NCBI GenBank assembly: GCA_016840685.1
Contig: JAEORX010000002.1
Coordinates: 28,852-92,851, forward strand
Source of the DNA: Candidatus Thorarchaeota archaeon
GTDB lineage: Archaea; Asgardarchaeota; Thorarchaeia; Thorarchaeales; Thorarchaeaceae
Length of the DNA: 64,000 bases
Direction of reading: 5' to 3'
The notes beneath the pieces are model-generated. The model was not told where the DNA came from, did no database searches, and saw only the letters and a list, made by a program, of their open reading frames with translations. Shown piece after piece: positions 1,593 to 53,487 of this stretch (its first letter is position 1; every line of letters begins with the position of its first letter). The translations under genes were made by a program, and so were the position numbers.

Positions 1593-2549
1593 ATGGATTT
1601 GGATTTGTGGACAGAAAAATATCGACCACCGACTCTGAGTGAAATCATTGGTCAAGAAGCACTAATTGAGAGTTTCAAGAAGTTTGTAGAAACCAGAACC
1701 GTGCCTCATTGTCTCTTTGCAGGCCCGCCGGGAACAAGTAAAACAACTGCGGCCATGGCTATGGCTAAAGATCTGTTTGGAGACTCTTTTGAACGAAATT
1801 TCTTAGAACTCAACGCTAGTGATGAAAGAGGAATTGATGTCGTAAGAAATCAAATCAAGAATTTTGCAAGGACCATGCCATCAGGTGGTGCTCCATTCAA
1901 AATACTTGTTCTTGATGAGGCTGATCACCTTACTGCTGATGCTCAACATGCCTTGAGAAGAACAATGGAGTCATATGCTGCTTCATGTAGGATGATATTG
2001 ATTTGTAATTATTCCAGTAGGATTATTCCGCCTATTCAATCGAGATGTGCAATATTCCGTTTTTCAAGACTTGATGACAATGATATTGGTAGTAGACTCA
2101 AGTATATTGCCAAAAAAGAAGGCGTTAGTTTACTTGAAGCTGGATCTAATGCGATTCTATATCTTGTTGAAGGTGATATGCGAGCGGCTATCAATCTGCT
2201 TCAAGCAGCATCATCAACAGGTCAGAAAATCAATGATGAGATAGTTTACTCAATATCGGGAAGAGCAAACCCAGAAGTTGTAAGAAAAATGCTTAATGAA
2301 GCCCAAGAAGGAAAATATACCGAATCACTTGATAGTTTACGGAATTTGATTTGTCAACAAGGAGTTTCGCCAATAGATTTGGTAAAACAAATACATCGAG
2401 AGATTGAGGGTCTTAATCTTGATAATCGAAAACGAATGGACATTCTAAATCAAACTGCAGAGATTGAGTTTCGTGTTGGTGAAGGCGCAAATGGTGAAAT
2501 TCAGATTTCATCGCTCTTAGCGCGCATAGGGCTTGGTAGTGATTCTTAA
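1593..2549 (+). CDS. rfcS: Replication factor C small subunit
   Basis: WTEKYRPPTLSEIIGQE, Walker A GPPGTSKTT, LDEADHLT and the SRC motif. 318 aa. Confidence 0.95.
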   Translation: MDLDLWTEKYRPPTLSEIIGQEALIESFKKFVETRTVPHCLFAGPPGTSKTTAAMAMAKDLFGDSFERNFLELNASDERGIDVVRNQIKNFARTMPSGGAPFKILVLDEADHLTADAQHALRRTMESYAASCRMILICNYSSRIIPPIQSRCAIFRFSRLDDNDIGSRLKYIAKKEGVSLLEAGSNAILYLVEGDMRAAINLLQAASSTGQKINDEIVYSISGRANPEVVRKMLNEAQEGKYTESLDSLRNLICQQGVSPIDLVKQIHREIEGLNLDNRKRMDILNQTAEIEFRVGEGANGEIQISSLLARIGLGSDS

Positions 2550-3769
2550 TGAATAAAGAAAATCTGCCTTGGTCTGAGAAACATCGTCCAAGGAAACTTG
2601 ATGCATTGGTTGGAAACCGGAAAACCATCGAGAAACTGAGGGAATGGGTGGAATCTTGGAAATCAGAGATACCAGTTAAGAGGGCATCTCTTCTTGTTGG
2701 GCCACCAGGAACCGGAAAAACTGCATCTGTGGGGGCGCTAGCAAACGATTTAGACATGGAACTTGTAGAATTCAATTCAAGTGATAAAAGAAACAAAGAT
2801 AGTATAGAAACACTGGTTTGGAGAGCTGCATCACAACAAACTCTCGATGGAAGATTTCGACTTATCTTGTTAGATGAGGTGGACGGTCTTTCGGGGACAA
2901 GCGACAGAGGAGGTGTGGGTGCAATTTTGAAGGTCGTCAAGGATACAGTTCACCCAATTGTGATGACTGCTAATGACCCTGATAGTCCACGTCTTAAAGA
3001 TTTGATGAAGGTTTGCCAGATTTTCAATTATGACTTAATCGAGAATGATGATATTAAAAGAATTTTGAAAAAAATTGTATCTGAGAATAAAGTAGAGGTT
3101 TCTAGTGAAGCGCTTGACGAGATTATTGAGAGCTCTAGAGGTGACGTTCGTGCGGCGATCTCTGATTTGGAGTCGTATGTAAGAAGTGGCTCGGCAAGTC
3201 TAATCTCTGAACCAATCATTAGAGATTCAAAGCGAGAAACCGAGGAAACTCTACGTCACTTATTTGCTTCAGTCAATCCAAAGATGGCTAGAAAAGCTCT
3301 AAATGAGTCTGAGCTGAATCATGATTCCTTGGTCCTGTGGTTAGAGGAAAATCTTCACTTACATCTTTTAGATTCGATTGAGCTTCATGAGGGTCTTGAG
3401 CAACTGTCTCTTGCAGACGTCACACTTGGAAGAATTATGATTAATCAGAATTGGAAGCTTTTGTCATATTTCTTCGATTTCTTGTCTTTAGGGGTGGCAA
3501 TGAGTCGGTCGAAAACACCTTTTCGGCGTGTTAAATATTCACAGCCTTCATGGCCTCTTTTGATTTGGCAAGGTAATAGGAAACGCGACAAACAGATTGA
3601 TGTTCTGGAATCTTTGTCTGTAGTGACTGGGGTTTCAAAAAGAAGAGTACGACAGACTCATCTTGATACAATCAATGAGATTGTCAAGATTAAGCCTAAA
3701 AGTCTGAGTGTCTTTGCGAGTTGGTTGAATGTTGAGAGATCGAACTTGGTACAGAAAAGTAGTCGATAA
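2549..3769 (+). CDS. rfcL: Replication factor C large subunit
   Basis: PWSEKHRPRKLDALVGN, GPPGTGKTA, LLDEVDGL. The start overlaps the rfcS stop, consistent with an operon. Confidence 0.9.
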   Translation: MNKENLPWSEKHRPRKLDALVGNRKTIEKLREWVESWKSEIPVKRASLLVGPPGTGKTASVGALANDLDMELVEFNSSDKRNKDSIETLVWRAASQQTLDGRFRLILLDEVDGLSGTSDRGGVGAILKVVKDTVHPIVMTANDPDSPRLKDLMKVCQIFNYDLIENDDIKRILKKIVSENKVEVSSEALDEIIESSRGDVRAAISDLESYVRSGSASLISEPIIRDSKRETEETLRHLFASVNPKMARKALNESELNHDSLVLWLEENLHLHLLDSIELHEGLEQLSLADVTLGRIMINQNWKLLSYFFDFLSLGVAMSRSKTPFRRVKYSQPSWPLLIWQGNRKRDKQIDVLESLSVVTGVSKRRVRQTHLDTINEIVKIKPKSLSVFASWLNVERSNLVQKSSR

Positions 3770-4559
3770 TATTGTTCAGTGTGATGACTGAGCGTCTGTA
3801 CTGGTTAAGTTGGTCGTTGAGTTTTTTCTGAATCAGTTTTATAGCATATTTACTCAGCTTCATCTTGAATGGAACTATTGTTTCTATTAGAACCAGATTT
3901 TCGGGAGGCGCTGGTTTGATACCACTTGCTAGAACTCTCTGTTCTGACAAGATACTGTCAATCATATCAAGCCTAATTTTTCCAGTACCAATTTCTATGA
4001 GTAGAGAAACTAGCTTGCGTACAAGCTTCCAGAGAAATCGTGTGCCATAGATGTCTAGATAGTATATATCGTCATGATCAAAGACTGATATGTTGAGGAT
4101 TGTTGTAACGGTATTTCGACCTGAATCGGGCTTAGCTAGCTCATTGAAATCATTAGAACCGATTAAGAGGGAAGCTGCTTTCTTAACAGCTCCAAGGTTC
4201 AATGTAGCCCAAGATTTGTCAAGATAATATCGATAGTGCCGCATCAACACATCGTAACGTGGTGCAAAGTTCAATGGGGCTTCTATTGATGCCCACAATA
4301 TAATGTCATCAGGAAGATATCGGTTGATTTTATCAATATTGAGTTGTTCGTTTGTTTCAATCATAACTAATTGTCCAACACTGTGAACTCCTCGATCGGT
4401 CCTGCCAGAAAATTGAGTTGTTTGAGTAGAGTGATGTTCCCCACTCCAATCTGTGACTGCTTGAATCAGTTCTCCTTGTACTGTCTTAAGTTCTGGTTGA
4501 TGCTGTGAACCGTGATATCGGTCACCAAGATAAAACAAGCGAGTGAGATATTTTGTCAT
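3696..4559 (-). CDS. truA: tRNA pseudouridine synthase A
   Basis: FYLGDRYHGSQHQP..TVQGEL..SGRTDRGVHSVGQLV catalytic Asp motif. The 3' end overlaps rfcL by 74 nt. Confidence 0.9.
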   Translation of the reverse strand: MTKYLTRLFYLGDRYHGSQHQPELKTVQGELIQAVTDWSGEHHSTQTTQFSGRTDRGVHSVGQLVMIETNEQLNIDKINRYLPDDIILWASIEAPLNFAPRYDVLMRHYRYYLDKSWATLNLGAVKKAASLLIGSNDFNELAKPDSGRNTVTTILNISVFDHDDIYYLDIYGTRFLWKLVRKLVSLLIEIGTGKIRLDMIDSILSEQRVLASGIKPAPPENLVLIETIVPFKMKLSKYAIKLIQKKLNDQLNQYRRSVITLNNIIDYFSVPSSISQHSTNSQRHSDF

Positions 4560-4574
4560 GTCATGACGACCTCA

Positions 4575-4859
4575 TCATGACTCCCAGAGATTAAATAGAC
4601 TTCTTAATGAACGAGCCCTGAGATCCTCAATTTTATACCTATATATTTTGATTCTACCAAATTTCTTTTCTTCTATGAGACCTGAGTTTAATAATACCTC
4701 TAGATGAGATTTTGTTGAACTATGATTCAGGTCAACTCTTCTACAGAGTTCCGAGATGTTCAACTCGGTGGCCATAGCGAGTTCTTTTAGTATTTTGATT
4801 CTCCCTCTTGAGGAGAATATGTCTTCAATGGCAACTTTGGGTGCGATTTCAGCGTTCAT
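4575..4859 (-). CDS. ArsR-type winged-helix transcriptional regulator
   Basis: RIKILKELAMATELNISELCRRVDLNHSSTKSHLEVLLNSGLIEEKKFGRIKIYRY. Immediately downstream of orc1/cdc6 with no gap. Confidence 0.7.
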   Translation of the reverse strand: MNAEIAPKVAIEDIFSSRGRIKILKELAMATELNISELCRRVDLNHSSTKSHLEVLLNSGLIEEKKFGRIKIYRYKIEDLRARSLRSLFNLWES

Positions 4860-6077
4860 TTATTTTCTCATAGCCCCCTTAGATGAGTCAAGTATTCCAG
4901 ACAAAAATTGCTCTAACATTTCAGCTGGAACATCAGAAAATCCAATGAGTGTAGTCTGACCTCTTTGACCAGTACCTGACTTCTTTGTGTCTATTATTCC
5001 ATGAGAATGAAGATCCTGAACCCATTCCCAGATTTGGGTATGTGCCCGTGGTTCTTCGTAGTACTCTTCGCATATCGAGCGATACATCTCTTCAACTTCT
5101 CCTATCGTGACGTAAGCACTACGAATCTCTCTAAGTTGTCGTGCTGCAGCAAGCAACAGAAGTTTATGTTGTGTTGGAAGTGTCGCGAAGACTTCTTTTC
5201 TGAGTTCAGGATGAGTGTCAGCTTTCGCGCGACGAGCGAAATCTGGAATCACTGTGTCGGTTCGTTCTCGGTCAGCGCGTTTACCAGCACGCCATAGAAG
5301 CTCAATTGCGTAACGGGCATCACCATGTTCTGAAGCGATATCACATATGACTTGGATTGTTTCATCCATAACTGCCTTTTTCTCAAAGGCCATTTCTACA
5401 CGATCTTGAAGTATGTCATAGAGAGCATTTCGGTTATATTTAGAAAATCTGAGCACATTGCGTTGTAGGGTACTACGCGTGCTTGAGTCTAATATGTCAT
5501 CATCAAGAGGAATTCTGCGGCCTATCCCGATAATTGAGAGACGTTGTGTGGCATTTAGTCTATCATCCATGAGTCGTGTTAGATCGTAGAGGATGTCTGC
5601 ACCTCTTTGTCTGATAAAATAATCAAGTTCATCGAGAATTAATAGGAGGTAGCGGTCCTCCTCATCAAGAACCTCAACTAACATTTGTAAGAGCTCATCA
5701 GGGGAGTGCCCACGCCTGGGAAATCTTGGTTTGAATTCTCTTAGTGCCCGAAGAAAAACAAGGTATGCAGTTTTATTGACACGACAATTGATATGGATAC
5801 TATGAAGTCGGATGTTTCGTCTTTTTGCGGCTTGAATCATTTGCTCAGAGAAGCGTTTTGCTACAGCTGTTTTTCCAGTCCCAACAGGTCCTTCAATGAT
5901 GAATTTATGGCTTGTTCTGCCTGGAGAGCTAATTAAGGTCTTGAAACTTTGAACTAACGTCCTAATCTCTGATTGCCGATGAGGAAGACTTTCTGGCACA
6001 TAGTCGATGGAAAGGAATTGTTCTGACTTGAACACACTGCGCTTACTTAGTTCATCCTCAATATAGTCATGCGACAT
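4860..6077 (-). CDS. cdc6: Orc1/Cdc6 replication initiator
   Basis: GPVGTGKTAVAKRF Walker A, LLILDELD Walker B and a C-terminal winged helix. 405 aa. Confidence 0.95.
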   Translation of the reverse strand: MSHDYIEDELSKRSVFKSEQFLSIDYVPESLPHRQSEIRTLVQSFKTLISSPGRTSHKFIIEGPVGTGKTAVAKRFSEQMIQAAKRRNIRLHSIHINCRVNKTAYLVFLRALREFKPRFPRRGHSPDELLQMLVEVLDEEDRYLLLILDELDYFIRQRGADILYDLTRLMDDRLNATQRLSIIGIGRRIPLDDDILDSSTRSTLQRNVLRFSKYNRNALYDILQDRVEMAFEKKAVMDETIQVICDIASEHGDARYAIELLWRAGKRADRERTDTVIPDFARRAKADTHPELRKEVFATLPTQHKLLLLAAARQLREIRSAYVTIGEVEEMYRSICEEYYEEPRAHTQIWEWVQDLHSHGIIDTKKSGTGQRGQTTLIGFSDVPAEMLEQFLSGILDSSKGAMRK

Positions 6078-24993: not shown

Positions 24994-25027
24994 TAACTGA
25001 GCTTTGCAAGTCATTCATATTTACATC

Positions 25028-25444
25028 AATTCACACTATGTTTGTGTGAATGGCGCCTTAATTGTGAATGCTCTACAGGAAAAAGACTTCTTATTGCTTT
25101 AATACTAGAACAGAGATAGTATATGTTTCAAGATACCTGTGAATAGACACACCCCTTCGTTTCCTATGGAAACAAGTAAAAAGACATATGAAATGCTCTC
25201 GCATTCATTCACAAGATGGATAAATTAGTGAATGATAAAATGACTGGAGAATATCTTTTTTTCAAAGAAAAAAGACTTCATATTGCTTCTTTGTTGGTAA
25301 AAAGACTTGACAGGACGTCAGCACAATAAAAACGGAGCGGACGAGCTCTATACGTGTATCTATACACTATGTAGCTCTTATCTCGGTATAGATAATTCAC
25401 ATACTCACACTTATTTGGAGTTTCATTCTACATGAATGTGAATA
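25028..25444. repeat. Iteron-like cluster: 8 copies of TGTGAAT(G/A/T) in both orientations, plus AAAAGAC(T/A)T direct repeats
   Basis: TGTGAAT-type copies at 25028(-), 25045, 25063, 25138, 25206(-), 25227 (AGTGAATG), 25394(-) and 25437. AAAAGACTTC(T/A)TATTGCTT at 25081 and 25270, with shorter AAAAGAC copies at 25178 and 25300. Confidence 0.7.
25150..25173 (-). promoter_or_regulatory. ORB-like element with G-string (candidate Orc1/Cdc6 binding site)
   Basis: Minus strand reads GTTTCCATAGGAAACGAAGGGGTG. This is close to the Aeropyrum/Sulfolobus ORB pattern TCCA(C/G)(A/T)GGAAAC-N3-GGGG. Confidence 0.55.
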
Positions 25445-25469
25445 GTTAAAGAAATAGGAGTAGCCTTGT

Positions 25470-26099
25470 GTGACCAGTGAAGATAGGACTAACTATGTGT
25501 ATGAGTTCACATACAGTTCAGCACCAGGTCTTCGTGAGATATTCCAATGTAAATATGTCAAACCAGATGAAGCACTTAATAGGTTTAGGAAAATCTTAGC
25601 ACTGACTGAATCTCCTTTTGACTTCAAGATAATTGTATCTGATGAAACAATGGGAGAAGAGTCTAGTTTTCAGGTAAAGGGTGGAAGCATAGAAGAGATG
25701 TTTGTCAAATTTAAAGTCTTTCTAGAAACCAGTACAGGTTTCATCTTTAAACCAGTCAGTGAAGAGATTGAAGAGGTAGGAATTGAGGACACACGGTTTG
25801 AGTCTATGAGTAATTATGACAAGATGCAGTTGATAATCTATGCGTCTTTCAAACATGGAAAGTTTTCCTCACTTGATGTTACCGAGATCTATCAAGACTC
25901 ATTTAATGAAGATTTACCAAAGAGTACTGCATCCACTTACTTAGCCAGAATGTGGAACAATGGCAAAGGTCATCTAGAAAGATATGGAAATCGTTCTGGT
26001 TACACATATCGACTAAGGACTGAAATTGCAGAAGTTCAGAAAGAAACTGAACGAGCTGAAGAGCTATTGGCCGCAATACAGATGAGAGTCAGGGATTGA
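25470..26099 (+). CDS. Hypothetical protein with a C-terminal winged-helix DNA-binding domain
   Basis: 209 aa, GTG start. DKMQLIIYASF..LDVTEIYQ..KSTASTYLARMWNNGKGHLERYGNRSGYTYRL fits a helix-turn-helix plus wing. Confidence 0.55.
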   Translation: MTSEDRTNYVYEFTYSSAPGLREIFQCKYVKPDEALNRFRKILALTESPFDFKIIVSDETMGEESSFQVKGGSIEEMFVKFKVFLETSTGFIFKPVSEEIEEVGIEDTRFESMSNYDKMQLIIYASFKHGKFSSLDVTEIYQDSFNEDLPKSTASTYLARMWNNGKGHLERYGNRSGYTYRLRTEIAEVQKETERAEELLAAIQMRVRD

Positions 26100-27437: not shown

Positions 27438-28751
27438 CTAGTTTTCCTCCTTTGGAAGATATTGCTCGAGGTACTGGTATTTTTCTGTCAATTCTCCTCG
27501 ATACACAATCACGGCATCTTTGAGTTCACGTGGTAAATCAAGATCTGAAAACGGTACAGTAAAATCTGCTTTTGCCAGAGCAGGAATGAAGTTAAGAATC
27601 GTTTCACTAAATGATGTAGACGACTCACGTGGTAACTCACAAGGGAGATTGTCAACAGCCACGACGACTGGTCCTTCGCCTTTCACACCTACTTCTGCTC
27701 GATTCTCGTTGATGATATAGGTGAATGCAGGTTTGTCCGGGCTTGTGCATCGCACTGTAAATTCTATTGCACCCTTGATATCACAAGAAATGTCGCCTAT
27801 TACTTGAAGCCTTCGATCATCCTTGTTCCAGTGACTACGAATGAAATCAACAGTTAGTAGGCGAGGATATTTGTTTGACCAATAGATGCAGTTCATTAAG
27901 ACTGTGACATAAGGAATGTGTTTATGAAACACACCAACATATTTTGAGTTTCCATACTTGTAATAGTCTTGGAGATCAAAACTATTGGAGGAATCTTTGG
28001 GTTCAACCATGTGTTCCTCTTTGAAGACACATTTGTAAAGTGAGTGTGATTCCGGAGATAATTCAGAGAGCTCTTCTGGAGTAATCGATTTGTGTGGGAG
28101 AATATCAAAAATCTCCTGAGCACCTTTGGAAACATTGCCATAACCTGCAAACCCTATGACAAATGGTATCAGCTCATGTGGGAGTCCTTGTTCCTTGATT
28201 CGGTTTCCAAGAAGTCTAAACTCCTCTCTTAGCTCTTCAAGCTCTCGTAATTCGAGCGTAGGTTTCATTCCAGCAAAGGGGTTAGGACTAATTCCGAGTA
28301 GTTCTAGACGTTTTCCGAGTATACGAAAAGTGTCAGAGATCCCAGCCATTCCAGCCCAGTTACCAAAAAATATCAGTCTTCGTCCATTATCGTCGACTAC
28401 TCTCTCATAGTCAATCAGTGTGGCACCAATATCAAGTATTTTTTTGAGCATGGGCATATTACTTGTCTGTCCCTTGATGGTATGGCTGAAAAAGATGTAT
28501 ACGGTATCTGCCTCAAAGATATCGATGGGTATCTCTTTTATCCCCAATACAACAGGTACACCACTGCCTTTTAGTGGAATCACGTTTGCCCTATCAAGAT
28601 TATATTCATCCTCTGAGAATGCTCGTTGATCACTTGGTTCTAACATGAAATCAATACTGTGTGTGTTGTGTAACAAGCTAACATGATCAGGTACTAGCGG
28701 AACACGAGTTTCGAATGGTTTCTCTTCCTTCCTAAGTCCAATCTTGTTCAT
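27438..28751 (-). CDS. Lysine-ketoglutarate reductase-like (AASS N-terminal-half-like); start taken at the internal ATG with a GGAGG upstream (ORF track extends to 28841)
   Basis: YIFFSHTIKGQTSNMPML, FAGYGNVSKGAQEIF, NCIYWSNKYPRLLT, GDISCDIKGAIEF, AVDNLPCELP and KDAVIVYRGELTEKYQYL closely parallel the human AASS LKR domain as I recall it. Confidence 0.85.
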   Translation of the reverse strand: MNKIGLRKEEKPFETRVPLVPDHVSLLHNTHSIDFMLEPSDQRAFSEDEYNLDRANVIPLKGSGVPVVLGIKEIPIDIFEADTVYIFFSHTIKGQTSNMPMLKKILDIGATLIDYERVVDDNGRRLIFFGNWAGMAGISDTFRILGKRLELLGISPNPFAGMKPTLELRELEELREEFRLLGNRIKEQGLPHELIPFVIGFAGYGNVSKGAQEIFDILPHKSITPEELSELSPESHSLYKCVFKEEHMVEPKDSSNSFDLQDYYKYGNSKYVGVFHKHIPYVTVLMNCIYWSNKYPRLLTVDFIRSHWNKDDRRLQVIGDISCDIKGAIEFTVRCTSPDKPAFTYIINENRAEVGVKGEGPVVVAVDNLPCELPRESSTSFSETILNFIPALAKADFTVPFSDLDLPRELKDAVIVYRGELTEKYQYLEQYLPKEEN

Positions 28752-28868
28752 CGACCATCCTCCATCTTTCTGTTCATAATAGACGTGGTGCCTAGGCCGT
28801 GGGCCAAGACACCCCCGCTTTAACTTTTCTCTGCCGGCCAAGTCAAATATTACTAAGACTCAAAATCC

Positions 28869-28880
28869 GAACACGTGTTC
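28869..28880. repeat. 12-bp perfect palindrome GAACACGTGTTC, copy 1 (abuts the ORB-like TTCAAGTGGTGAAT)
   Basis: Read directly. Confidence 0.9.
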
Positions 28881-28898
28881 TTCAAGTGGTGAATTCCA

Positions 28899-29186
28899 TT
28901 GACATTGTATTTGTATCTATATGATTGCCAACATGCAAGACGAACTAATGCCAGACGTGTTGCATTCACAAAAGAACTCTATGGATACATATACACATGG
29001 AAAACAAAGTCAGGTATCAAACAAAAACGGAAACCAGGTCTCTTGGATGAATGTCCTGGTACCGAGGCTGTTGCAGACTCGGCTATCTTGGTTCCCATGG
29101 AACACAAAGTCGTCTTTGATGCACTTTTTGAAACGTATGAAGATATCCTCAAATTGAAGATCTTTGAAGTTGTTACAGAAATATAG
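28899..29186 (+). CDS. Hypothetical small basic protein (95 aa, TTG start) bracketed by the palindromes; weak Cas2/VapD-like ferredoxin-fold impression
   Basis: LYLYLYDCQ..RRVAFTKELYGY..DSAILVP gives a beta-alpha-beta pattern. Competing ORFs exist in other frames, so coding status is uncertain. Confidence 0.3.
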   Translation: MTLYLYLYDCQHARRTNARRVAFTKELYGYIYTWKTKSGIKQKRKPGLLDECPGTEAVADSAILVPMEHKVVFDALFETYEDILKLKIFEVVTEI

Positions 29187-29192
29187 TATTTC

Positions 29193-29204
29193 GAACACGT
29201 GTTC
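29193..29204. repeat. Palindrome GAACACGTGTTC, copy 2
   Basis: Read directly. It lies 7 nt after the stop of the 95-aa ORF. Confidence 0.9.
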
Positions 29205-29244
29205 CAATCATTATTACTTGTATTACATTCTTATTTGATGATCT

Positions 29245-29258
29245 ATTTCCACTGGAAC
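29245..29258 (-). promoter_or_regulatory. mini-ORB (GTTCCAGTGGAAAT), overlapping palindrome copy 3
   Basis: The minus strand reads GTTCCAGTGGAAAT, which matches the conserved ORB core without a G-string. Confidence 0.7.
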
Positions 29259-29266
29259 ATGTGTTC
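29255..29266. repeat. Palindrome variant GAACATGTGTTC, copy 3
   Basis: Read directly. One substitution relative to the other copies. Confidence 0.85.
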
Positions 29267-29280
29267 CAAATTGAATCGGA

Positions 29281-29300
29281 CCCCCTTGTTTCCACTAGAG
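29281..29300 (-). promoter_or_regulatory. ORB element with G-string
   Basis: Minus strand reads CTCTAGTGGAAACAAGGGGG. Confidence 0.75.
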
Positions 29301-29425
29301 ATTATTAACATATATCTAATCGATAAAAAATCCAAAAATATATATAATAGTTTAATCAGCTGACCTTTATCTCCATTTTTTAAATGTATAATAATACTCG
29401 CTGAGAAAATTCTTCATTTGATCTT
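29301..29425. other. Candidate duplex unwinding element of oriC
   Basis: 125 bp with 27 G/C by hand count (~21% GC). Flanked by inverted ORBs. Confidence 0.65.
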
Positions 29426-29444
29426 TCGAGTGGAAATCAAGGGG
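29426..29444 (+). promoter_or_regulatory. ORB element with G-string (inverted relative to 29281..29300)
   Basis: Plus strand reads TCGAGTGGAAATCAAGGGG. Confidence 0.75.
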
Positions 29445-29501
29445 TCTTATGCAGATATAGTATAGTGAAGTATATAGAACACATGAGTGTAATATACACT
29501 A

Positions 29502-29513
29502 GAACACGTGTTC
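29502..29513. repeat. Palindrome GAACACGTGTTC, copy 4 (a half-site GAACACATGAG lies at 29477)
   Basis: Read directly. Confidence 0.9.
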
Positions 29514-29602
29514 TAAATGATATTCATGAATTGTTCAATACCACAAAACTGATACAGCACACACAATTCAAACCGAATCATCCATACGCGGAGGATTTGT
29601 GA

Positions 29603-46865: not shown

Positions 46866-46975
46866 GGGGCGGTAGTCTAGCCCGGCTATGATGTCTCGTT
46901 TACACCGAGAAACAATCGAAGCTTTGTGCTCTTTGAACTCGAGGGTCGCTGGTTCGAATCCGGCCCGCCCCACCA
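46866..46975 (+). tRNA. tRNA-Val (UAC) with a ~32-nt intron 3' of the anticodon stem (variable-region, non-canonical position), CCA encoded
   Basis: GGGGCGGTAGTCTAGCCCGGCTATGATGTCTCGTTTACACCGAGA[AACAATCGAAGCTTTGTGCTCTTTGAACTCGA]GGGTCGCTGGTTCGAATCCGGCCCGCCCCACCA. Boundaries are ambiguous because CGAG is repeated. Confidence 0.8.
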
Positions 46976-47070: not shown

Positions 47071-47189
47071 GCGGGAGTAGCCAAGCCCGGTCAAAGGCGG
47101 CGGACTTAAGATCGATGAAAAATATGGGGTCACGATAAGATATCCGCTCTCGTAGGAGTCCGTGGGTTCGAAGCCCACCTCCCGCACCA
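47071..47189 (+). tRNA. tRNA-Leu (UAA) with a ~31-nt canonical 37/38 intron, CCA encoded
   Basis: GCGGGAGTAGCCAAGCCCGGTCAAAGGCGGCGGACTTAAG[ATCGATGAAAAATATGGGGTCACGATAAGAT]ATCCGCTCTCGTAGGAGTCCGTGGGTTCGAAGCCCACCTCCCGCACCA. Has a long variable arm. Confidence 0.85.
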
Positions 47190-47891: not shown

Positions 47892-49241
47892 ATGAGTCTT
47901 GATGATTCGGGTTATAGTGGATTAGTCCTAGAGAAGATCTCCAGTTCTAATGCCAAAGTTGGAGATATAATCAGTGTCAAGAGGAACGAGGAGGAGTATG
48001 TGGGAGTACTCATGCCGCGAAGCCAAGTTGGGAGTGACTCATTTCATATCATAATTAAGATTGAAACAGGCTATAATGTCGGTATAAAGATGCATCAAGA
48101 CTCTGAGATACAGAAAATCAAGACGGGCAAAAAGAAACGAACTATTATGTCAAAAGAGGAAGCAGACCAAAGGGACTTACCCACGGCTTCAATCCTTAGT
48201 ACTGGTGGTACCATTGCTAGCAAAGTCGATTATCAGACAGGGGCTGTTAATCCTGCCTTATCAGCACAGGACCTCTATGACACAGTTCCAGAACTCAAAA
48301 ACTATGCTAACGTCCACGCAAAAGTAATCATGAGTGTACTCTCAGAAAATATTCAGCCCAAGGATTGGACTAAGATTGCCAAGAGTGTGGCTTCTGAGAT
48401 TAAATCCGGAACAGATGGTGTTGTAATTGCACACGGAACAGATACACTAGGATCAACTTCAGCAGCACTATCATTTGCTCTTCAAGACCTTCCGATACCA
48501 GTCGTCCTAGTTGGATCACAGAGGTCCTCAGACCGCCCATCATCAGATGCTGCCATGAATCTGATAGGCGCCATTAACCTAGCAACAAGAGCAAATGCTG
48601 CAGAGGTCCTTGTCTTGATGCACGCAGAAACAGGCGACAACTATCTTCATGCACATCGTGGAACACGTGTTCGAAAGCTACATACAAGTCGTCGTGATGC
48701 TTTTCAATCAGTCAATGACTATCCATTATTCCGTGTCACAGAGCAAGATATTGAGGAAATTCATCCTCCAAAACACCGGAGAGATAAGGACAGAAAGCTC
48801 ATCTTAAAGCCGAAATTCGAAGAGAAAGTAGCACTAGTAAAGACACATCCTAGTATTGATGGTTCAATAATCAATCATCTCGTAGAATCAAGTTATAGGG
48901 GAATCGTGATTGAAGGTACTGGTTTGGGACATACGCCGAATCGTCTTCATTCTTCAATTAAGAAGGCTATTGATGCAGGTCTCGTTGTTGTAATGTCTAG
49001 TCAGTGTGTATTTGGACGTGTAAACATGAATGTCTACCGTTCAGGTGTCGAACTCCTTGATATCGGAGTAGTACCTTGCGAAGACATGCTGCCTGAAACA
49101 ACTCTTGTGAAGCTCATGTGGGTGTTAGCAAACACTAAGAACCAAGAAGCCGCAAGAGAACTTCTATTGAAACCTCTCGCAGGCGAGATTGACATGCGAA
49201 GTGAGGAATCTGAGTACGTTTCAAGCCTTGGGGGGAGCTAA
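47892..49241 (+). CDS. gatD: Glutamyl-tRNA(Gln) amidotransferase subunit D
   Basis: Asparaginase-like LSTGGTIASKVDYQTG, HGTDTL, RGTRVRKLHTSRRDAF. The ORF track begins at the GTG at 47880. Confidence 0.95.
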   Translation: MSLDDSGYSGLVLEKISSSNAKVGDIISVKRNEEEYVGVLMPRSQVGSDSFHIIIKIETGYNVGIKMHQDSEIQKIKTGKKKRTIMSKEEADQRDLPTASILSTGGTIASKVDYQTGAVNPALSAQDLYDTVPELKNYANVHAKVIMSVLSENIQPKDWTKIAKSVASEIKSGTDGVVIAHGTDTLGSTSAALSFALQDLPIPVVLVGSQRSSDRPSSDAAMNLIGAINLATRANAAEVLVLMHAETGDNYLHAHRGTRVRKLHTSRRDAFQSVNDYPLFRVTEQDIEEIHPPKHRRDKDRKLILKPKFEEKVALVKTHPSIDGSIINHLVESSYRGIVIEGTGLGHTPNRLHSSIKKAIDAGLVVVMSSQCVFGRVNMNVYRSGVELLDIGVVPCEDMLPETTLVKLMWVLANTKNQEAARELLLKPLAGEIDMRSEESEYVSSLGGS

Positions 49242-53380: not shown

Positions 53381-53487
53381 TGGAGCCCCAGGCGAGATTT
53401 GAACTCGCGACCTGCTGATTACAAGTCAGCCGCTTTGACTGCACATCTGGTCATCCAGAGATGCTATAGCCTCTAAGCCACTGGGGC
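53381..53487 (-). tRNA. tRNA-Thr (UGU) with a ~30-nt intron in the D-arm region (non-canonical), CCA encoded
   Basis: Minus strand reads GCCCCAGTGGCTTAGAGGCTATAGC[ATCTCTGGATGACCAGATGTGCAGTCAAAGC]GGCTGACTTGTAATCAGCAGGTCGCGAGTTCAAATCTCGCCTGGGGCTCCA. Boundaries are ambiguous because AGC is repeated. Confidence 0.85.

Follow-up and report, generated by a model that had tools for sequence, protein, structure and literature searches.

In a 64,000-nucleotide stretch of a Candidatus Thorarchaeota genome (contig JAEORX010000002.1; hereafter the window), the non-coding region at 29187-29602 very probably serves as an origin of chromosome replication of the Orc1/Cdc6 (oriC1) type, a reading to which we give a probability of about 0.85. 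Two inverted origin recognition boxes (ORBs) enclose an AT-rich spacer at this site, and the region has every sequence-level feature of the oriC1-type family save adjacency to an initiator gene. An initial annotation of the same DNA had proposed an origin here, and this proposal is now supported by the architecture of the site, its conservation, a switch in strand composition and an Orc1-1-type initiator gene. To the elements already described we add a gene for a 95-amino-acid protein, palindromes of the sequence GAACACGTGTTC, a motif in the middle of the spacer and a distal ORB, ORB-A.

Inverted origin recognition boxes flank the most AT-rich spacer of the window

The left box, ORB-L, lies on the minus strand at 29278..29302 (29300..29281 as first quoted; CTCTAGTGGAAACAAGGGGG). 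It consists of the dyad TCTAGTGGAAAC and the G-string GGGGG, with the dyad towards the spacer and the G-string outward. ORB-R, on the plus strand at 29423..29447 (29426..29444 as first quoted; TCGAGTGGAAATCAAGGGG), reads TCGAGTGGAAAT-CAA-GGGG and is inverted relative to ORB-L, both dyads pointing inward. Each box combines a dyad, containing the mini-ORB core TCCA..GGAAA, with an asymmetric G-rich element, and the ORB consensus fits the published descriptions 'TCCA-GAAAC' and 'GGGGT'.

We derived a weight matrix from 141 ORBs in other genomes, leaving out the window itself (consensus ATTTCCAGTGGAAACGAAGGGGTGT), and scanned the window with it. ORB-L scored 33.0 bits and ORB-R 35.0 bits, bearing out the inverted, G-string-bearing pair around a spacer that the initial annotation had described. 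Three sites in the 64 kb scored 33-35 bits, whereas the fourth-ranked scored 0.9 and the maximum in shuffled sequence was 11.7. ORB-L and ORB-R were also the sole matches in the window to the 16-mer AGTGGAAAYMAAGGGG (core plus G-string, at most two mismatches), where 0.11 were expected, and in 692 kb of related DNA the ORB is confined to two syntenic positions. Together these counts rule out chance or a dispersed repeat as the source of the ORBs, the latter being a concern raised with the original 19-mers, which occur at three sites in the 64 kb.

All three ORB and mini-ORB sequences quoted in the initial annotation are present at the positions and on the strands given there. The mini-ORB GTTCCAGTGGAAAT (29245..29258, minus strand), which is without a G-string and overlaps a palindrome at 29255, was however found in only about five closely related loci and is clade-specific, not phylum-wide.

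Between the two boxes lies the 125-bp AT-rich spacer (29301..29425), the presumed duplex unwinding element (DUE). It contains 27 G/C, as counted before, or 21.6% GC against 41.6% for the window, and this is the minimum of all 125-nt stretches in the 64 kb. The spacer also holds the weakest 100-bp duplex of the window, at -104.2 kcal/mol compared with a mean of -130.9 (sd 5.8; 4.6 sd off). With both boxes the fragment measures 164 bp. The plus-strand motif TTATCTCCATTTT is found near the middle of the spacer, at 29367..29379, and is not enriched elsewhere in the 64-kb window.

The ORB module is conserved across Thorarchaeota

The same arrangement, a minus-strand ORB, an AT-rich spacer and a plus-strand ORB, was found upstream of iorA in 50 of 53 related genomes, and both ORBs are within four mismatches of the consensus in 50/53 loci. 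The conserved blocks in an alignment of the 53 genomes are ORB-L, ORB-R, two GAACACGTGTTC palindromes, TTATCTCCATTTT and a block upstream of iorA. When the non-coding region of the 53 loci was aligned, the columns of ORB-L and ORB-R were 90-99% conserved and those of TTATCTCCATTTT 80-99%. The spacer is of nearly fixed length across 50 loci (119-132 bp, mean 125.4; mean GC 0.298), and 38 of the 50 carry TTATCTCCATTTT with at most two mismatches at a mean offset of about 67 nt.

We also considered whether the two ORB arms might pair as the stem of a structured RNA or a cruciform. Variable positions of ORB-L and ORB-R covary no more than expected by chance, and an Rfam search of the origin region matched no family. 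These results rule out a stem and indicate that the arms behave as independent protein-binding sites.

A search of IMG/VR viral contigs for an ORB, or for a composite of palindrome, 14-bp gap and ORB, returned few matches and none with palindrome plus ORB. Four contigs filed as viral carry pairs of a minus-strand and a plus-strand ORB (at 173-382, 2011-2133, 1721-2093 and 3212-3584, respectively). With the Thorarchaeota matrix these pairs reach 18-33 bits, and there is no palindrome in their vicinity. The contigs could be mobile elements of archaea, or pieces of chromosome with the same origin type that were filed wrongly.

An Orc1-1-type initiator gene lies 23 kb from the boxes

The Orc1/Cdc6 gene at 4860..6077 (minus strand) encodes a protein of the Orc1-1 type and, judging from its sequence, the presumed ORB-binding protein. 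Its identification in the initial annotation was confirmed by the Pfam domains Cdc6_C, Cdc6_lid and AAA and by a score of 360.6 bits against NCBIfam NF001623, the ORC1 equivalog (cut-off 311). The best PDB matches are 1FNN (3.8e-57), Sso Cdc6-1 (2QBY_A; 1e-46) and Ape ORC1 (2V1U; 1e-38), and the protein is much more distant from ORC2 and Cdc6-3 than from the Orc1-1 class. As first noted, the gene does not adjoin the origin, being 23.3 kb away, and the weight-matrix scan of the window placed no ORB beside it.

Strand composition switches at the module

Raw GC skew is +0.09 to +0.17 across the first 26 kb of the window and then about zero, a step down from about +0.12. The skew of third-codon positions (GC3 skew), with the plus strand as reference throughout, shows the change more sharply. 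GC3 skew is positive in 15 of the 16 genes up to 26.1 kb, in either orientation, 14 of them within +0.17 to +0.38. It is +0.21 in the saccharopine-dehydrogenase-like gene and +0.10 in the alanine dehydrogenase (AlaDH)-like gene that follow, and -0.09 to -0.17 in the small gene beside the ORBs, iorA, iorB, hypF and the next gene.

In an 80.8-kb composite, made by extending the window on both sides, the cumulative GC3 curve has its maximum at 28527 and its best two-segment change-point at 28533, about 0.8 kb from the spacer. Genes to the left are positive in 24/26 cases and genes to the right negative in 28/39 (Fisher p = 2e-7), and all seven genes of the right extension are negative. The skew inflection anticipated in the initial annotation is hence present at this locus, and it recurs among 40 related loci, where 39 have a positive left flank, 32 have a negative right flank and the left value exceeds the right in 38. 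In pooled 500-bp bins the skew stays positive (+0.05 to +0.22) through all 12 bins to the left of the spacer centre and falls to about zero in the first to the right, which puts the step in the bin at the spacer centre.

Given that genes on both strands share the same plus-strand-referenced sign, the asymmetry is strand-wide, and gene orientation is ruled out as its cause. No comparable strand-wide component was seen in AT3 skew. The genes on either side point away from the site, the orientation expected around an origin, with 59% of the left codons on the minus strand and 66% of the right codons on the plus strand.

Under the bacterial rule the leading strand is G-rich, and the maximum of cumulative GC skew marks the terminus. 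By that rule the excess of G over C on the plus strand left of the site has the polarity of a terminus, and this is one of several observations that weigh against an origin here. The pooled amplitude is asymmetric (+0.176 on the left versus -0.071 on the right, about 2.5 times stronger on the left), and the skew is uneven, at just +0.03 in the 8.4 kb past the left window edge. Because the related loci are syntenic orthologues, the 40 genomes do not count as independent, and the region doubles as a promoter region, so part of its conservation may be regulatory. Finally, orc1/cdc6 is not adjacent, as an initiator gene usually, though not obligatorily, is. Frequent passive replication by another origin is one possibility for the weak skew of the right arm. 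GC3 skew is slightly negative in MCM and its neighbour.

The polarity has a mapped archaeal precedent in Haloferax volcanii Ori3, where the cumulative GC skew of third-codon and non-coding positions reaches a local maximum, a pattern described as 'very different from bacteria' (PMC12999951). Since the polarity is the reverse of the bacterial rule, skew alone is unable to separate an origin from a terminus, and we favour an origin because of the ORB and AT-rich architecture together with the Haloferax precedent.

It is very unlikely that the site is instead a replication terminus or a polar barrier where Orc1-bound ORB-like sites arrest forks. A plus strand that is G-rich to the left and C-rich to the right would suit this, and the asymmetric amplitude could fit a one-sided barrier. 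However, the genes diverge from the site where a terminus would have them converge, and the mapped Haloferax origin shares the reversed polarity at third-codon positions. A 12-mer with 3-4 copies in each locus is the sole conserved palindrome, in place of a single dif-like 28-bp site (no dif consensus scan was made), and the annotated neighbours include no Xer-type recombinase or integrase domain. We know of no archaeal terminus made of inverted ORBs around an AT-rich element, and fixation of one to a single intergenic spacer phylum-wide would require a dedicated system, of which there is no sign.

Equally hard to credit is the idea that the chromosome is replicated mainly from elsewhere, and that this site is an origin now seldom used, whether dormant, a relic or captured long ago with an extrachromosomal element. 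Such an origin would be consistent with the lack of an adjacent initiator gene, and the weak right-arm skew fits frequent passive replication from another origin. Moreover, inverted pairs of this type of ORB are present on some IMG/VR contigs, and haloarchaea and Sulfolobus offer documented cases of dormant origins and of origin capture (PMC4595724; PMC4010727). Against this, the skew switch is kept at its exact place in 38/40 genomes, which argues for long-term use. The flanking genes are ordinary chromosomal ones in conserved synteny, and there is no integrase or element boundary.

Palindromes and an orphan gene accompany the ORB core

Palindromes of the sequence GAACACGTGTTC accompany the ORB core. 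PAL1 (28869..28880, exact) precedes the small gene's start codon by 18 bp, within the divergent promoter region that this gene and the AlaDH-like gene have in common, and PAL2 (29193..29204, exact) follows the small gene's stop codon by 6 bp. PAL3 (29255..29266; GAACATGTGTTC, one mismatch to the consensus) lies 14 bp outside the G-string of ORB-L and is 80-99% conserved. PAL4 (29502..29513, exact) lies 57 bp outside the G-string of ORB-R, about 90 bp upstream of iorA, and is 99% conserved.

In the 692 kb of related DNA, 116 exact copies of GAACACGTGTTC fall within 900 bp upstream of iorA and two elsewhere. The palindrome flanks the ORB core on both sides in 49/51 loci, with 3-4 copies per locus, one of them at 320-460 bp left of ORB-L in most loci. 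At 29 loci on the left side and at 11 on the right side, exactly 14 bp separate it from the G-string, and gaps of 43, 57 and 63 bp also recur. A further exact copy at 48661-48672 of the window, within the gatD coding sequence and far from the origin, could be a chance occurrence or functional. Between PAL4 and the iorA start codon, a TGTCCAATACCACAAGACTGATACA-like block at 29531-29556 is 70-99% conserved and is probably a promoter or leader element of iorA.

The region 28842-29602 had been taken as intergenic, which proved incorrect. It holds the plus-strand gene for the 95-amino-acid protein (28899..29186), the small gene referred to above, which leaves 29187-29602 as the non-coding origin region. 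This orphan gene always lies between the AlaDH-like gene and the ORBs, and by tblastn its product was found in all 53 loci examined at 50-87% identity. Its 182 homologues are Thorarchaeota throughout, and an exhaustive profile search of 1.84 billion representatives gave about 13 clusters, a very narrow family. The gene has GAACACGTGTTC palindromes on either side.

No match to the protein was found in Pfam, NCBIfam, PADLOC or PHROG, and none by sequence in the PDB. The AlphaFold2 (AF2) model has a ferredoxin-like fold (pLDDT 89), with a basic, invariant first helix (N17-A-R-R-V-x-F-T-K25). Foldseek comparison of this model with the PDB and BFVD gave nothing significant (best E 0.03 and 0.01, respectively). 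A Cas2-like identity is not supported, the TM-scores of 0.43-0.48 not being significant. An entry for UBP, the small protein that binds Sulfolobus oriC1, was absent from the 50 best Foldseek matches, none of them significant, although the PDB should include the 2025 UBP structures. Accordingly, a UBP-like or E2/EBNA1-like identity is unsupported by the sequence, profile and fold searches. The protein may be a candidate origin-associated or palindrome-binding factor.

Given this setting, we considered that the region might be regulatory only. Orc1/Cdc6 or a paralogue, with a palindrome-binding factor, would then be transcription factors whose target promoters are those of the small gene, iorAB and the AlaDH-like and saccharopine dehydrogenase genes, and replication would not start here. 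The elements do lie between promoters, as the places of PAL1 and PAL4 show, the single ORB-A is located upstream of a gene, and Orc1 paralogues can regulate transcription, as with Orc1-2 in Sulfolobales (PMC9738581; PMC12490963). We nevertheless regard this explanation as improbable. It leaves unexplained both the strand-wide, phylum-conserved GC3 switch centred on the spacer and the fixed 125-bp, most AT-rich spacer between inverted ORBs, an arrangement that is a hallmark of initiation modules. Regulation and origin function are, in addition, mutually compatible.

A third full ORB lies 4.1 kb to the left

ORB-A, the third high-scoring site of the matrix scan (25149..25173, minus strand; GTTTCCATAGGAAACGAAGGGGTGT; 34.1 bits), is a full ORB with G-string. 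It lies 4.1 kb left of ORB-L in the same orientation, has no inverted partner and is conserved in 42/46 loci. Around it is a conserved non-coding block, region A (24994..25469), with at least eight TGTGAAT/ATTCACA motifs, including TGTGAATGGCGCC...ATTGTGAAT, three direct repeats of the AAAAAGACTTCWTATTGCTT type at 25081, 25270 and 25300, and an AT-rich stretch at 25179-25303 (28% GC). An Rfam search of region A matched no RNA family. GC3 skew is positive on either side of region A, which rules it out as a replichore boundary, and in view of the missing switch we read ORB-A as a distal accessory ORB, not a second origin.

Directly downstream of region A, a plus-strand gene at 25470-26099 encodes an acidic orphan protein of 209 amino acids. 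The 120 best-scoring homologues listed keep at least 84% identity, a tighter conservation than that of IorA (69-93%), and those listed homologues with a named source all come from Thorarchaeota or other Asgard metagenome-assembled genomes. Searches of Pfam, NCBIfam and the PDB gave no match. By eye the C-terminal half is winged-helix-like, and there is a weak CopY-like match (E 0.05). Its AF2 model is poor (pLDDT 55) and unfit for structure search.

Neighbouring genes

To the left of the origin region the minus strand carries the saccharopine-dehydrogenase-like and AlaDH/PNT-like genes, and to the right the plus strand carries iorA and iorB. This gene order is kept in about 55 Thorarchaeota genomes, whose IorA proteins have the 69-93% identity given above. 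In the closed chromosome CP070658.1 the locus falls within 1,799,371-1,813,257. In one related genome the small gene and the ORBs are 1896 bp apart, compared with about 400 bp in the others, owing to some 1.5 kb of additional DNA (4104-5600 of that locus sequence). This could be an insertion adjoining the origin.

Orc1 belongs to a loose replication-gene cluster 23-30 kb from the ORBs, together with MCM and the small and large subunits of replication factor C (RFC-S, 1593-2549; RFC-L, 2549-3769). MCM, on the minus strand, runs off the left window end at about 726, and the cluster reaches about 1.3 kb past the left edge. An ArsR-type helix-turn-helix protein of 94 amino acids is encoded at 4575-4859, immediately downstream of orc1.

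A scan for bacterial-type promoters and terminators found as many matches as expected and is uninformative because the host is an archaeon. Rfam identified tRNA genes missed by ARAGORN at 46866-46972, 47071-47186 and 53392-53448. Two of these are 107 and 116 nt long and so probably contain introns. The frequency of tRNA introns is very high in other Asgard genomes (PMC11291895), and the tRNAs of the window fit this.

Discussion

These data allow us to propose how an origin at 29187-29602 would work, with Orc1 binding, MCM loading and firing modelled on characterised origins. By analogy with oriC1 of Sulfolobus and Aeropyrum, monomers of the Orc1-1-type initiator would bind the two inverted ORBs, each placing its winged-helix (wH) domain on the dyad (TCnAGTGGAAA) beside the spacer and the initiator-specific motif (ISM) of its AAA+ domain on the distal G-string. 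Once bound, the two initiators would recruit MCM to the AT-rich 125 bp that separate them, and replication would then proceed bidirectionally. TTATCTCCATTTT, the GAACACGTGTTC palindromes and ORB-A may serve as accessory or regulatory sites for further factors. Their role would be comparable, though not their sequence, to that of ucm and UBP in Sulfolobales and of the second Cdc6-bound ORB cluster of Pyrococcus.

The pattern of a minus-strand ORB, a DUE and a plus-strand ORB is the standard one for Cdc6-type origins, in which the wH domain recognises the dyad and the ISM recognises the G-rich element (preprint 10.64898/2026.08.15.744077). According to the same preprint, the main oriC of Hyperthermus butylicus has this pattern and no adjacent initiator gene. 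As described, it resembles the Thorarchaeota locus in both respects, although it belongs to another phylum.

In Sulfolobus oriC1, a 130-bp core of ORB3, DUE and ORB2 requires both ORBs, and the mid-DUE element ucm is also essential and is bound by the small, lineage-restricted protein UBP (PMC12141716). The Thorarchaeota locus shares with the Sulfolobus and Saccharolobus oriC1 the inverted ORBs of dyad and G-rich element, an AT-rich region of similar size, a mid-spacer motif and an Orc1-1-type initiator. In contrast, the initiator gene is adjacent in Sulfolobus and 23 kb away here. The ucm sequence TTATACAAAC (10.64898/2026.08.15.744077) does not occur in the Thorarchaeota spacer, where TTATCTCCATTTT holds the mid-spacer position, and the flanking GAACACGTGTTC palindromes are not among the oriC1 elements described in PMC12141716.

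In Pyrococcus, the ORB and mini-ORB oligonucleotides shifted by Cdc6 have a core identical to the 12-nt TTTCCACTGGAA, and a second Cdc6-bound ORB cluster lies a few kb from oriC (PMC1904270). The core of the mini-ORB GTTCCAGTGGAAAT is likewise identical to TTTCCACTGGAA. The Thorarchaeota locus resembles the oriC of Pyrococcus and other Thermococcales in the TTTCCACTGGAA core, the inverted long ORBs and the replication genes nearby, and the second Pyrococcus cluster parallels ORB-A. The two differ in the distance of the G-string from the core (about 9 nt in Pyrococcus, 2-3 nt here) and in the mini-ORBs, which are many in Pyrococcus and clade-specific in Thorarchaeota; in addition, the Pyrococcus cdc6 gene lies between the two clusters. 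As in the haloarchaeal oriC1 of Haloferax and Haloarcula, inverted ORBs with G-strings surround a DUE (PMC1868953, PMC4010727), and the polarity of the skew maximum is that of H. volcanii Ori3 (PMC12999951).

We also entertain, as a speculation that we think has perhaps a small chance of being right, an accessory layer specific to Thorarchaeota. A dimeric factor on GAACACGTGTTC, possibly the 95-amino-acid protein, would together with TTATCTCCATTTT and ORB-A control licensing or firing, as an independently evolved counterpart of ucm and UBP. As a corollary, third-codon GC skew in these Asgard genomes would run opposite to the bacterial rule, and any assignment based only on skew would exchange origin and terminus.

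Asgard archaea are the closest known prokaryotic relatives of eukaryotes. Our literature search turned up no paper in which an Asgard origin is resolved to its initiator-binding sites. It returned only guesses from skew for Odin-, Atabey- and Freyarchaeia and, in a 2026 preprint (10.64898/2026.08.15.744077), automatic bulk predictions for Promethearchaeota. A phylum-conserved, sequence-defined origin would provide substrates for biochemistry with recombinant Thorarchaeota Orc1 and MCM, and an anchor for estimates of growth rate from metagenome read depth. It would also serve as a calibration point for skew polarity in Asgard archaea, since an origin-like module at a skew maximum suggests that origin and terminus may be mislabelled when the bacterial convention is applied. 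The additional conserved motifs and the neighbouring orphan genes, in turn, are testable candidates for lineage-specific origin factors.

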